The position numbers and the translations under genes were made by a program. This document shows positions 17,923-21,654 of a stretch of DNA of 64,000 nucleotides, piece by piece. The stretch comes from Candidatus Latescibacterota bacterium. Its GTDB lineage: Bacteria > Latescibacterota > UBA2968 > UBA8231. The DNA lies in assembly GCA_965203175.1 (NCBI GenBank), contig OZ241867.1, positions 2,368,001 through 2,432,000 on the forward strand. The letters are read 5' to 3'. Numbering within the stretch: the stretch's first letter is position 1; every line of letters begins with the position of its first letter. The notes beneath the pieces were generated by a model that worked only from the letters and a program-made list of their open reading frames with translations, did no database searches and was not told the origin of the DNA.

Positions 17923-18065
17923 AGTAGTGGTTCACTTAAAAAATAATCGGCGATGGCTTTGGTCTGGCCAGACGCGCTTCCCGAGATCAACAGTAGTCTG
18001 CCCAACCGCAAGTTCTGCGCCTAACTTTGGCGGTTTAGGGCGAGATTTCAAACTGAATCACTATC
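17923..18065. mobile_element. About 143-bp MITE-like remnant with IS1-like imperfect TIRs
   Basis: AGTAGTGGTTCACTTAAAAAAT at left and, on the - strand, GATAGTGATTCAGTTTGAAAT at right. Another end, GGTAATGGGCTAATTTGAA, lies at 17898. Confidence 0.6.
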
Positions 18066-18413
18066 CTCTGAAGGTTGTTGGCTCGTCGTCAGTGAATCGG
18101 CAAGGGTGGCTATGATGGATTTCTCGTCCCGTTTCGACAGCCTCCCAATTTTGCGTACCACCGATTTATTATCGAGCGAGAAAAGCTTGAGGCGGATTTT
18201 GCAAGGCACATTGAGGCCGGCTTCCTGCCAATCCTCAATGACTACATCGCTTGGCCATTTGTTTTTCGTGCTCGTAATCATGGCGAAGATCGTTTGCTTG
18301 TGAACCTTATTGAAGCTCACTGAAGAGACAACTAGCGCTGGGCGGCGTTTCTTTTCATTGAGGTCTGCGAAGGGGAAAGGAACGACGACTACGTCGAATG
18401 GATCAAAGGTCAC
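18048..18413 (-). CDS. PemK/MazF family endoribonuclease toxin
   Basis: TFDPFDVVVVPFPFAD...KRRPALVVS...AMITS...AGLNVPCKIR. GTG 18413 follows a GAGGAGG RBS inside the upstream gene (11-bp overlap). Confidence 0.92.
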   Translation of the reverse strand: MTFDPFDVVVVPFPFADLNEKKRRPALVVSSVSFNKVHKQTIFAMITSTKNKWPSDVVIEDWQEAGLNVPCKIRLKLFSLDNKSVVRKIGRLSKRDEKSIIATLADSLTTSQQPSEDSDSV

Positions 18414-21400
18414 GCCAAGCCTCCTCATCTTCTGGGGAAGTCCATTCTTCACTCATCGTCTGATAAAGATCACGCAGATAATCATCCTGAACTAGTGGCC
18501 AGCCGCCGTGGGCGTCTATTGTTTTGTCGATTTTGGCCATGATGCGCGGCGTCTCGGCCAAGGCCGCGCAGAGGCGGGAGTAGTGGTCAATGTCATCGTA
18601 TGAGAGGGTGCGATTTTTGCGGTCTTTGAGCCACTTCTCTGCCGGCTGGTAGCCACCAATGGTGAATTCCCACGTGTCTAGCGCAACGCCGTCAAAATAC
18701 TGCTCGCCGTTGATCCACACCCGCTTTTGCGGCGGTGCATAGCGCACTTTTTCTACGCAATTGTTGCCTTTGATCGGAAAAGCAGGGACCTCGTCATCAT
18801 CGGCTTCCATTAAGTGCAGGGCTGTCAGCCGCTTCCCAAGCATGGCGAGCGACTCAAACAGCGCACCGCAGTTGGTCACGGGAATGCGGGGAAAATCTGA
18901 CTTGAGGAAATCAGCGTAGCGGCGGCGGTATTCTGGGCTGTGGAGGACGGCGTAGAGATAGTGGAGTATATCTTCCGGGCCGAAGGTAGTTGTGAGGTCA
19001 CCGGTGCCTTCGGGGATGAAATCGAGAGTGGTAGCGGAGGAGAAGACTTTGACGAAATCGGAGTTCAGGTTGGGGACACGCCTAGATTCTTCTGTTGAAT
19101 AGATATAAAGCGGGAAGAGACAGTTCCCACCACGTCGAAACAAATTGAAATCCGAGGAAAATTTTGAAGCAAAAACGATCTCCCAAGTGTCGGAACCAAT
19201 AACTTGACCAGCACGGCCGACGCACAACCCTAAGTTCGGGCCTGCCAACATGTGACGCATGACGCGCTCACGCCTGTGGACAGCGACATTGCGGTCGAAT
19301 ATTGTGGCCCGGACATCGAACGGTCGGTAGAGGACTGGTTTGATTCGCTCGCGCCAAGAGCCACCCGCTAGTTCCTGTTTCGCTTGGTCATATTGCCATT
19401 GATTCTGCGAACACAGACGCCATTGGGCACGTGCCTCATCTTCCGATGAGGTGGCGAGCAAACGCTCGACTTTAGCCGCCGCCTCTTCCGGTGTCCATGA
19501 GATGGCGAATTGATCGTGTGTAGTTACGATACCCGGTGCTGGATCGCCATTCGGCGAAAAAATTGAGGGGATAGACCACGCTGCTTCGTACTCTTCGAGC
19601 AATTCTTCGTTGCGCGGAATGAACAGATATAACGGCGGCTTAGGTGAAAGCTCTGTCCAATCGGTAGTTTTAACGCTGTTGGCGGCGAGCCAGCCATATT
19701 TTCCGCGATTCGGCCCCGACTCGCGCTCGCCCCACAAGTCAGCGTGAAACACTTTGGCTGGGCCGTTATCGGCATTTTTGCATTTGACGAACAGACCTAT
19801 GGCGACCCCCTGCTGAATGTCGAACACATTTTCGTCGTTGCCGCCATCAGGAGTGCGCTCCTGCTTCTTGGCGTTGCCGTGCAGGTCGAGCAAATAGATC
19901 TCGTCAAAGGTTTCCATCAAGCTGCGGCGCATCCCACGAAAGGTCGGGTTGTCCAAATAGCCATGGTCGGTCACGAAGCCGAGCACACCCTCACCAGTGC
20001 GCTCAATGCGCCATTGGGCAAAGCGGATGAATTTCACGTAATCGTTGCTGAGCCATTTTGCTTGCGCCGGTCTTTCTAATTCGGGAAAACCCTGCTTGTA
20101 GCTACCGATCAACTCCGCAATCCACGCGTTCTTGTTGGCGGAGTGCCCGGAATAGGGTGGATTGCCCATCACGACCATTACCGGCTTTTCTTGCTTGACC
20201 GCATAAGCACTGGCCGCTTCGCGCACAATTTCGGGAGCAAAAAGCGGGGAACTATGCCCTTCGTCTGGTCCTTCTAAGGCATTGGTGAGGAAGACATTGA
20301 GCCGCTCACCGGCGGGCATGGCAAAGCCGCGGTCCGTGCCGCCGATTTCGAGCGCGAGTTTCAGGTGGCAGATCGAGTAAGGGGCCATCAGCAACTCAAA
20401 TCCGAACAGGCGCGGCAAAAGGTGCTTATGTACGTAGCCCGGCCAAGCACCGCCTAATCCCTTCGCTTCAATGGTCTCGCGGATGGTGGCGACTACTTCG
20501 CGCAGAAAGGTTCCTGTGCCCGCTGCTGGGTCGAGAATCGTCACTCTCGGACGGGGAGAGCCGCCGTTTTCGGATGCGACCGTCGCCGTGTCGGCTAGCC
20601 CATCGGCTAAGCCAAACTGATCGCGCAACAAGTGGTCCACACTCTGCACGATGTAAGACACCACGGGTTCGGGAGTATAGTACACACCTCGCTTCTCGCG
20701 TAGGTGCGGATCATAAGCCGCTAAGAAATCCTCATAGAAATGCACTACCGGGTCTTCTTGCCGGGTCTTCTTGCCGAACTCGGACAGGATAGATGCCATG
20801 TCCGCCCGATCTAGTAGGTACGCCAGATCATCAACTATCCAAGCGATCCGCTCGTCCATCCCTGGGCCAGCAATCCTCCCGAAGACATCTCGCAAAAAGG
20901 GCGTGGTTTCGGCAAACGCGGCCGACTGGCGGGTAAAAGGTTTATTGTCGTGTTCGTGTCGGCACCGTGCCGCAAACAGCCCATAAGCAGCCGTCTGCGC
21001 CTGCAAATCGGCGAAGTCTGCTTCCGACAAGCCGGCGATGAGCCCCTCGCGGTAACCGGTGAGCATATTGTGGAGGGGGCCGGCCTCAGTTTCTTGAGCC
21101 AAGATGCGCTCAATGCTGTCACGGAGTAGCCGCGCCTTGGCCGCCATGCGCTCGGCCAGTTCACGCGGCTGGCCAATGGACGGCGGGTCGGCGTCAAAGA
21201 ACGCGGTGAACAGTTCGGCGACTTGGGGAGCGCCGGTTTGGTCAATAGTGATACGATCTCGATTGCCGGTGTGTGCAAGACGAGCCTTCAGGTGTAACTC
21301 CCCTTCTACATACCAGCGAAATTCGAGATAGTCGGTGAGAATCAGATTCGGCAAACTGTCGAGGTAACGCGTGAGTTGGTCATCGCGTTCGACTCGGTTC

Positions 21401-21654
21401 AGATCTACGTCGATATCCTTGCATTCGACATGCCCGATGGGTACCCCTCCCCGCTCGACGATGAAATCGGGCGCACCGCACTTGACGCGCTTAGGCTCAT
21501 TGAGGGCACGAACTCGTTTGCCACCCAACCCTTGGATCAGATTCTCAAGGGCCGAGCGGTAGCTGTGCTCGGTCGCCTGCTTGGTAGCAAAGGTAGTCTT
21601 CAGGCTATTGTAATACACCCGAAGAGGACTACTAAGGGCCTGTTTTGTCGTCAT
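18403..21654 (-). CDS. Type IIG/ISP-like restriction-modification enzyme (nuclease + N6-adenine MTase + specificity domain) with a C-terminal antitoxin-like tail
   Basis: GAPDF...GHVECKD nuclease motif, GVYYTP, LDPAAGTGTF (motif I), GNPPY (motif IV), YRPFD, FPRIP, IGGYQ...KWLKDRK, HGGWPL. No helicase motifs seen. Confidence 0.92.
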   Translation of the reverse strand: MTTKQALSSPLRVYYNSLKTTFATKQATEHSYRSALENLIQGLGGKRVRALNEPKRVKCGAPDFIVERGGVPIGHVECKDIDVDLNRVERDDQLTRYLDSLPNLILTDYLEFRWYVEGELHLKARLAHTGNRDRITIDQTGAPQVAELFTAFFDADPPSIGQPRELAERMAAKARLLRDSIERILAQETEAGPLHNMLTGYREGLIAGLSEADFADLQAQTAAYGLFAARCRHEHDNKPFTRQSAAFAETTPFLRDVFGRIAGPGMDERIAWIVDDLAYLLDRADMASILSEFGKKTRQEDPVVHFYEDFLAAYDPHLREKRGVYYTPEPVVSYIVQSVDHLLRDQFGLADGLADTATVASENGGSPRPRVTILDPAAGTGTFLREVVATIRETIEAKGLGGAWPGYVHKHLLPRLFGFELLMAPYSICHLKLALEIGGTDRGFAMPAGERLNVFLTNALEGPDEGHSSPLFAPEIVREAASAYAVKQEKPVMVVMGNPPYSGHSANKNAWIAELIGSYKQGFPELERPAQAKWLSNDYVKFIRFAQWRIERTGEGVLGFVTDHGYLDNPTFRGMRRSLMETFDEIYLLDLHGNAKKQERTPDGGNDENVFDIQQGVAIGLFVKCKNADNGPAKVFHADLWGERESGPNRGKYGWLAANSVKTTDWTELSPKPPLYLFIPRNEELLEEYEAAWSIPSIFSPNGDPAPGIVTTHDQFAISWTPEEAAAKVERLLATSSEDEARAQWRLCSQNQWQYDQAKQELAGGSWRERIKPVLYRPFDVRATIFDRNVAVHRRERVMRHMLAGPNLGLCVGRAGQVIGSDTWEIVFASKFSSDFNLFRRGGNCLFPLYIYSTEESRRVPNLNSDFVKVFSSATTLDFIPEGTGDLTTTFGPEDILHYLYAVLHSPEYRRRYADFLKSDFPRIPVTNCGALFESLAMLGKRLTALHLMEADDDEVPAFPIKGNNCVEKVRYAPPQKRVWINGEQYFDGVALDTWEFTIGGYQPAEKWLKDRKNRTLSYDDIDHYSRLCAALAETPRIMAKIDKTIDAHGGWPLVQDDYLRDLYQTMSEEWTSPEDEEAWRDL

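Follow-up and report, generated by a model that had tools for sequence, protein, structure and literature searches.

A Type IIG restriction-modification enzyme with an antitoxin-derived tail as the predicted antitoxin of a neighbouring MazF toxin

In MazEF toxin-antitoxin pairs, the free tail of the MazE antitoxin binds across the active-site groove of the MazF toxin. The NetFlax study (PMC10440598, in its available excerpt) describes a linear motif, Phd-C, that neutralises its toxin in vivo when fused to SUMO. The guardians of restriction-modification (RM) systems PrrC and PARIS are reviewed in PMC12707154 (excerpt), and Makarova et al. (PMC3506569, excerpt) proposed that immunity components are the missing antitoxins of the toxins associated with them. 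Here, we describe a locus of Candidatus Latescibacterota bacterium where an RM gene ends in a tail derived from an antitoxin and overlaps a gene encoding a toxin of the PemK/MazF family. The locus lies in a stretch of 64,000 nucleotides (contig OZ241867.1 of assembly GCA_965203175.1, positions 2,368,001 to 2,432,000), hereafter the window, whose positions are used below. Sequence comparisons and a model of the complex provide good support for a reading in which the RM enzyme itself would be the antitoxin of the neighbouring MazF.

The fused gene and the origin of its tail

The RM gene (18403..21654, minus strand) encodes 1083 aa, as established from its translation and from Pfam, PADLOC, and PDB matches. 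Its open reading frame (ORF) runs through ...GGWPLVQ into DDYLRDLYQTMSEEWTSPEDEEAWRDL and terminates at a TGA (18405-18403). The fusion joint is just upstream of the tail, after GGWPLVQ. The tail itself (DDYL...AWRDL, 18406..18486, minus strand) corresponds to residues 1057-1083, i.e., to 27 codons beyond the usual end of the family, and was studied with protein and DNA alignments, substitution rates, and a model of the complex. The toxin gene (18048..18413, minus strand, 121 aa) starts at a GTG (18413-18411) and overlaps the end of the RM gene, stop codon included, by 11 nt. Its ribosome-binding site, GAGGAGG (18420..18426, minus strand), was read from the sequence: it is built from the D-E-E-A codons of the tail, with a spacing of 6 nt to the GTG. 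This motif is identical in the loci of all 10 species that have the fusion (see below), a count based on alignment for eight loci, including the two without toxin, and on the unchanged protein in both frames for G043 and G046. The initial annotation, made from the window sequence, had described the long ORF, the in-frame tail, the ribosome-binding site, and the overlapping GTG, and was correct in every detail. It had also noted the lack of a separate antitoxin gene nearby. Indeed, none of the 11 MazE/AbrB-domain hits of the genome lies within the window, the nearest being ~190 kb away, and the four small ORFs flanking or overlapping the locus have no Pfam match. A scan of promoters and terminators between 17700 and 22000 was not informative (4 promoter-like and 8 terminator-like sites, versus 2.3 and 4.7 in shuffled sequences).

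We read in the RM protein a PD...ExK nuclease motif (P62-D63, E77-K79), a methyltransferase motif I (375-383), and an NPPY motif (498-501). Pfam identifies N6_Mtase and the specificity domain Type_ISP_C (707-1039), the PADLOC model REase_MTase_IIG (PDLC03610) matches with an E-value of 1.9e-274, and the nearest solved relative is PDB 7lo5 (E 4.2e-42). As a single chain that combines nuclease, methyltransferase, and specificity domain, this is a predicted Type IIG enzyme. It had been labelled "Type IIG/ISP-like", of which the first part stands and the second does not: there is no helicase family among the Pfam matches, and LlaBIII and LlaGI are matched in their methylase and specificity part only (RM residues 299-965 align only with LlaBIII residues 841-1474). 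Since the helicase-like ATPase motor is missing, we classify the enzyme as Type IIG and not as Type ISP. The expectation that RM proteins of this kind end near GGWP is borne out. In the window protein, GGWPLV is at 1050-1055 and the Type_ISP_C match ends at residue 1039 (profile position 340 of 342), with the tail lying beyond it. Three more distant orthologues end 3-20 residues past GGWP, and among 58 metagenomic RM relatives, 57 have their stop 0-13 residues after the alignment ends and one runs off its contig. At window position 19074, the contigs of three RNA-library runs have a 15-nt insertion relative to the window, which may correspond to the length of most relatives (1088 aa, versus 1083 aa here).

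The toxin frame is intact, as initially described, and its product matches PemK_toxin (PF02452) with an E-value of 2.5e-15 and 57 bits (cut-off 23.1). A PDB search with the toxin sequence alone returned nothing at E <= 0.01, and a profile of its relatives weakly matches the solved MazF9 and MazF6 (E ~6e-4). The Arg-Pro and Thr/Ser positions of the toxin, which we take to be catalytic from work on E. coli MazF, align with those of solved MazF proteins.

The origin of the tail was revealed by stand-alone toxin-antitoxin pairs of the same genus. Two loci (L024 and L025) encode a 74-aa antitoxin followed by a toxin with the same 11-nt overlap (in L025, the antitoxin is at 1353-1577 and the toxin starts at 1567), and their toxins are 60% identical to that of the window. 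Both antitoxins have a MazE_antitoxin/AbrB domain at residues 4-47 (Pfam E 2.7e-9), with weak PDB matches to AbrB and SpoVT. It is their last 26 residues that align with the RM tail: when the last 40 residues of the enzyme are used as a query, identity is 74% over residues 13-40 (28 residues, E 2-3e-7 per genome). The tail is thus more than a chance open frame. The initial annotation had recognised in it the acidic C-terminus of AbrB/MazE antitoxins, and proposed to search these antitoxins with the last residues of the enzyme; the alignments support this for the antitoxins encoded ahead of toxins closely related to this one. Standard family models do not reveal the relation, and the tail lies outside the curated MazE models: Pfam finds no MazE_antitoxin domain in the RM protein, and its last 50 residues alone match no family of Pfam or NCBIfam.

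The DNA sequences of the RM locus and of the stand-alone pair are homologous from the DDYL codons onwards and through the identical stop/start junction. Upstream of these codons they are unrelated. On this comparison, the AbrB DNA-binding domain is replaced here by the RM enzyme. In the simplest history of the fusion, a mazEF pair would once have been located just downstream of the RM gene, and an in-frame deletion would have taken out the RM stop codon and the AbrB DNA-binding domain of the antitoxin, joining the enzyme to the last 27 mazE-type codons. The genome also encodes two other mazEF-like pairs, L002 (1275-1827) and L003 (1492-2107). Their proteins are near-identical by eye, their toxins are 43-45% identical to that of the window, and the acidic tail at the end of their antitoxins is related to that of the window but shorter.

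We then modelled the complex, as the initial annotation had proposed, using two copies of the toxin (46-row alignment) and the last 40 residues of the enzyme (10-row alignment). The complex scored 0.77 and the best control 0.01, on a scale where 58 of 80 solved complexes reach the mark for a pass, as do 2 of 110 mismatched pairs. At least 57% of the contacts are shared between runs, and the partner has a predicted local confidence (pLDDT) of at least 64. The confident contacts of the peptide are restricted to positions 15-40, that is, to the grafted part, without RM residues. The toxin contributes residues 22-25, 45-50, and 68-78, which include the Arg-Pro and Thr/Ser positions. Homology (74% identity) and model together suggest that the C-terminal peptide binds the toxin dimer, in an argument that is one of likeness and not a proof.

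Distribution, natural variants, and selection

Within one genus, 10 of 31 species genomes have the fusion, which is absent from the 137 genomes of the 48 other genera of the phylum. Homologues of the tail or the toxin are found in none of the 58 metagenomic RM relatives. When a collection of 5.8 billion proteins was searched with the 40-aa query, all 31 matches to longer proteins belonged to this RM family. We aligned 25 of them, which are 66-95% identical overall to the window enzyme, leaving out P0014, P0015, P0017, P0021, P0028, and P0029 (1087-1096 aa, within the range of lengths kept). The tail is intact in 22 of the 25, with 23-27 of its 27 residues identical, compared with 77-92% identity over the preceding 200 residues; it is broken in the remaining three (clusters P0031-P0033). 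Counted over all 31 clusters from public assemblies, 28 have an intact tail. Hence, the fusion is not a scar unique to one genome, nor is it a misassembly, two explanations that the initial annotation had named as fatal to its reading. A profile search with the tail among 1.84 billion representatives resulted in 292 matches at E <= 1e-3. Among the best 150 of these 292, 146 are 31-120 aa long. In the 8 sequences inspected, the only carriers lacking an AbrB domain are pieces of the RM family (P0003, P0031, P0157), the 186-aa P0270 retaining half of such a domain.

The ten species provide a series of natural variants. Five of them, including that of the window (G000, G002, G023, G043, and G046), have a full-length RM gene, the tail in frame, and an intact toxin, even though the enzyme of G046 is only 72.5% identical. 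G022 and G013 share an in-frame deletion of 668 RM codons, in which the native ribosome-binding site, the start, and the first 8 residues are joined to IPRNEELL (residue 677 onward). The resulting protein of 418 aa consists of the specificity domain and the tail, still in frame, and is followed by an intact toxin. In G001, a 330-aa remnant of the RM C-terminus, adjoined by an ORF resembling an insertion sequence (IS) transposase, also keeps the tail in frame and the toxin intact. The toxin was lost independently in the last two species, where the RM frame is full length: G008 has the tail in frame, with all but 6 codons of the toxin deleted and its start changed to TTG, whereas G007 has a CAG to TAG change precisely at the joint, four further changes in the tail, and a toxin that is mostly deleted, its GTG having become GTA. 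In other words, the tail is in frame in all eight toxin-bearing species, and none of the ten has an intact toxin without it, an answer to the search for synteny in diverged genomes that had been suggested initially. As three of these eight species have kept tail, toxin, and RM C-terminal part after losing the nuclease and methylase domains, restriction activity is not needed for the pair to persist.

Within the specificity domain (RM residues ~690-790), a segment of ~100 residues is only 29-33% identical between the window enzyme and those of G007 (L023) and G046 (L027). Outside it, the same enzymes are 61-91% identical. The segment resembles a swapped target-recognition segment, and these two species therefore probably combine a different DNA specificity with the same tail-toxin module.

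We estimated the ratio of non-synonymous to synonymous rates (dN/dS) with the Nei-Gojobori method (NG86) in the 28 pairs of the eight toxin-bearing genomes. The ratio is 0.10 in the tail (25 codons, Q1056-E1080, the last three being left out because they overlap the toxin gene), 0.23 in the RM C-terminus (281 codons), and 0.23 in the toxin (109 codons), values that are indicative only since the genomes are related and the tail is short. The estimate on the tail, also part of the initial proposals, thus points to purifying selection where the toxin is present. Synonymous divergence across the eight species is 0.26 in the tail and 0.18 in the toxin (18048-18492), versus 0.50 in the adjoining RM C-terminus (18493-19350). 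The low synonymous rate of the tail may result from constraints on the ribosome-binding site, from a younger tail-toxin module, or from recombination of the RM part with diverged alleles.

Possible roles of the fused enzyme

Tail homology, distribution, purifying selection, and the model of the complex converge on the proposal, already made in the initial annotation, that the RM enzyme is itself the antitoxin. We give a probability of about 0.72 to the joint explanation that the fusion arose by in-frame deletion, that the tailed enzyme neutralises MazF, and that the two form an ordinary type II toxin-antitoxin module. A single polypeptide would then combine DNA cutting, methylation, and a toxin-neutralising peptide, and this peptide, placed across the MazF dimer at its active-site groove, would keep the ribonuclease (RNase) silent. 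Translation of MazF would be coupled to the end of the RM frame by the ancestral ribosome-binding site and the 11-nt overlap, so that the toxin would be made only when its neutraliser is made. Because the AbrB domain has been lost, we propose that there is no autoregulation and that expression depends on the RM or the folD promoter. The module would travel with the RM cassette and make its loss costly, with growth arrest if the synthesis of the tailed enzyme stops or if the tail is degraded, for example during a phage-induced shut-off.

Several observations weigh against this reading. Toxicity, binding, and neutralisation, as well as the trigger of release, are all inferred. The model of the complex may have passed by likeness rather than by binding of its own, as MazE-MazF complexes have already been solved. 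The dN/dS of the tail concerns 25 codons and rests on few changes, in a segment where the synonymous rate is also low, and the species are relatives instead of independent samples. The conservation of the tail could be explained by addiction alone, since its loss next to an intact toxin would be lethal. The tail is intact in G008, which lacks the toxin, so that clear decay after toxin loss is limited to one species of two. For the whole enzyme, the AlphaFold2 model (26-row alignment) is unusable (mean pLDDT 33, predicted template-modelling score 0.22) and leaves the exposure of the tail unsupported. Finally, contigs of 85-99% identity span the junction between RM gene and toxin gene in three of four metatranscriptome runs, indicating that relatives are present in these libraries. 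Since contigs cannot show a transcript, we did not use them to argue for co-transcription; they prove neither transcription nor a single transcript.

The alternative that survives best is a guard function, which we nevertheless regard as rather improbable. Two layers of defence would be hard-wired: the loss, degradation, or stalling of the RM enzyme, its inhibition by a phage anti-restriction protein, or its shut-off by the phage would free the tethered MazF and abort the infection, in analogy with PrrC-EcoprrI. The toxin would indeed be tethered to a defence enzyme, and it evolves under purifying selection, which addiction alone does not demand. Judging by its sequence, the RM part looks active and diversifying, as indicated by the divergent segment of G007 and G046; the tail is kept in both genomes (in G007 behind the stop codon described above), and the toxin is kept in G046. 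The use of immunity components as reversible inhibitors of associated toxins has also been proposed (PMC3506569, excerpt). However, the three toxin-bearing species devoid of nuclease and methylase keep tail and toxin with nothing left to guard, and in two of the ten species the RM frame is still full length although the toxin is gone. Furthermore, in our model the tail binds MazF by itself, without RM residues among the contacts, which offers no evident path from RM inhibition to the release of the toxin.

A second alternative, which we find distinctly less credible, is that translation begins anew within the 3' end of the RM gene and yields a small antitoxin peptide, in the manner of Rpn, making the fusion incidental. 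Intragenic antitoxins have been documented for Rpn (PMC10400941, excerpt), and there are in-frame ATG codons at positions 1039 and 1067, leaving 45 and 17 aa, respectively. However, whereas the RM start and the toxin start both have a Shine-Dalgarno-like motif, such a motif precedes none of the seven in-frame ATG, GTG, or TTG codons in the last 150 codons, an absence compatible with initiation that does not depend on it. M1067 lies within the conserved antitoxin motif and is also found in the stand-alone antitoxins. The deletion in G022 and G013 preserves the frame with the native start, which would be unneeded if the peptide were translated from within, even if one deletion in three would be in frame by chance.

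It is about equally implausible that the arrangement is an inert relic drifting towards loss, with a toxin that is dead, silenced, or neutralised in trans. One half of the pair has been lost in five of the ten species (three RM truncations and two toxin deletions), there are other mazEF-like pairs in the genome, and in G001 the fusion coexists with a stand-alone pair whose antitoxin tail is 74% identical. These facts must be set against the dN/dS of toxin (0.23) and tail (0.10), the alignment of the Arg-Pro and Thr/Ser positions with solved MazF proteins, and the persistence of the fusion despite divergence of the RM part down to 72% identity. As for neutralisation in trans by another antitoxin of this genome, it is unlikely, because the paralogous antitoxins of the two other pairs are only 24-26% identical to the 40-aa C-terminus (12 RM residues plus the tail) and no close copy of the tail occurs elsewhere in the genome.

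If the enzyme acts as the antitoxin, this locus would be a natural and evolutionarily maintained transfer of the neutralising peptide of a type II antitoxin to an unrelated enzyme. The view of antitoxins as modular linear motifs, so far based on engineered constructs, would gain support. To our knowledge, a single-chain RM enzyme is by itself unable to cause post-segregational killing; the fusion suggests a route by which it could gain addiction. MazF toxins seemingly devoid of an antitoxin may then be controlled by tails hidden on neighbouring enzymes, and in annotation the antitoxin of orphan toxins may have to be sought in the last 30 codons of the neighbouring gene. The locus would also be a compact system in which to study the idea that immunity proteins restrain associated suicide toxins, and the guard function, were it true, would be a covalent and minimal form of the coupling between immunity and suicide proposed by Makarova et al. 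in 2012 (PMC3506569, excerpt). The real interest of an arrangement confined to one genus is that nature has supplied a deletion series, with its controls: the full enzyme, the enzyme without catalytic domains, and the enzyme without toxin.

Genomic context and comparison with known systems

The RM gene starts 21 nt past folD (21676-22821), which has serS upstream. A direct repeat of 64 nt has its left copy (21681..21744) within the folD 3' end, shortly before the RM gene begins, and its right copy at 16436..16499, with 91% identity between them. The two copies bracket a 5.2-kb cassette composed of the tailed RM gene, mazF, and an ORF of 414 aa, and downstream copies of the repeat are also found in G023 and G007. 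Because repeats of the folD 3' end bracket them, the tailed RM gene and mazF behave like a cassette that was inserted where folD ends. Such a layout suggests that the cassette is mobile and targets that site, even though no integrase was seen. In G046, folD was not found within the 816 nt upstream of the RM gene. The 414-aa ORF (16588-17832, minus strand), between mazF and the right repeat, has no usable match in Pfam, PADLOC, or Protein Atlas, and its stretch has no DNA match in the loci of the other nine species. Several of the latter, e.g., G022 and G013, have a higA-like gene ~100 nt or less after the toxin.

The interval between folD and a gene resembling a glucan phosphorylase (8240-10795) is a variable island of toxin-antitoxin and defence genes, where we found a RelE/helix-turn-helix pair, a fragment of higA, and an IS element. 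The pair (14234-14871) consists of a RelE-family toxin gene (E 4e-10) and an overlapping antitoxin gene of the helix-turn-helix/MqsA-like type. The HigA-like helix-turn-helix ORF (13800-14075, 91 aa), with a weak match to Pfam HTH_3, looks cut short in comparison with the ORFs of 124-130 aa in other species. G022 has a HigA-like ORF, and G013 a full one with an adjoining ORF of 93 aa that is HigB/RelE-like by eye. The DDE transposase ORF (11418-12464; DDE_Tnp_1_5 E 3.6e-37, DDE_Tnp_1 E 2e-19) is overlapped by a long antisense ORF. In G001 (L022), an ORF of 336 aa next to the RM remnant resembles this transposase by eye, on its N-terminal residues only.

An RM enzyme carrying an antitoxin tail was not found described in print: among the titles and the first lines of abstracts searched, none describes an RM enzyme with an antitoxin peptide, and no paper was found that joins "Type IIG", "toxin-antitoxin", and "MazF". 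The closest enzymes are the Type IIG/IIL proteins resembling PDB 7lo5, which we take to be DrdV (the title of the PDB entry is adenine-specific methyltransferase). They have the same architecture, with nuclease, N6-adenine methylase, and specificity in one chain, but they end at or shortly after the position equivalent to GGWP, whereas this lineage has 27 additional residues derived from an antitoxin. The Type ISP enzymes LlaGI and LlaBIII differ by their helicase-like ATPase motor between nuclease and methylase, which is absent here.

In PrrC-EcoprrI, as described in the excerpts of PMC3506569 and PMC12707154, an RNase toxin is silenced by an RM protein encoded next to it, as we predict here. 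PrrC is, however, a HEPN/ABC-ATPase protein that associates non-covalently with a multi-subunit Type Ic enzyme and is triggered by the Stp peptide of phage T4, while MazF is presumably held here by a peptide grafted on a single-chain Type IIG enzyme. The Rpn L/S system (PMC10400941, excerpt) also has its antitoxin function in the 3' end of a PD-(D/E)XK nuclease gene. RpnS, however, is a separate translation product that inhibits the long protein encoded by the same gene. In our locus, the full-length enzyme appears to include the tail, and the target is a separate toxin. The SUMO-Phd-C fusion (PMC10440598, excerpt) resembles our locus in that a short neutralising motif is borne by an unrelated carrier, and there the motif is sufficient. 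It is a laboratory construct directed against the Doc toxin, whereas the fusion described here is natural, kept across species, and carried by a defence enzyme.

The system with which the locus shares most is MazEF/PemIK (PF04014 and PF02452). The toxins are of the same family, the neutralising C-terminal peptides are homologous (74%), the antitoxin sequence lies upstream in the same orientation, and the locus shares with L025 its ribosome-binding site and its stop/start overlap of 11 nt. The difference is in the carrier of the peptide: the AbrB DNA-binding and dimerisation domain of MazEF is replaced here by 1056 RM residues, which makes the antitoxin a large enzyme and has presumably abolished operator binding, hence autoregulation. 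From its sequence, the tailed RM enzyme and its toxin would thus work like a MazEF pair without the AbrB domain.

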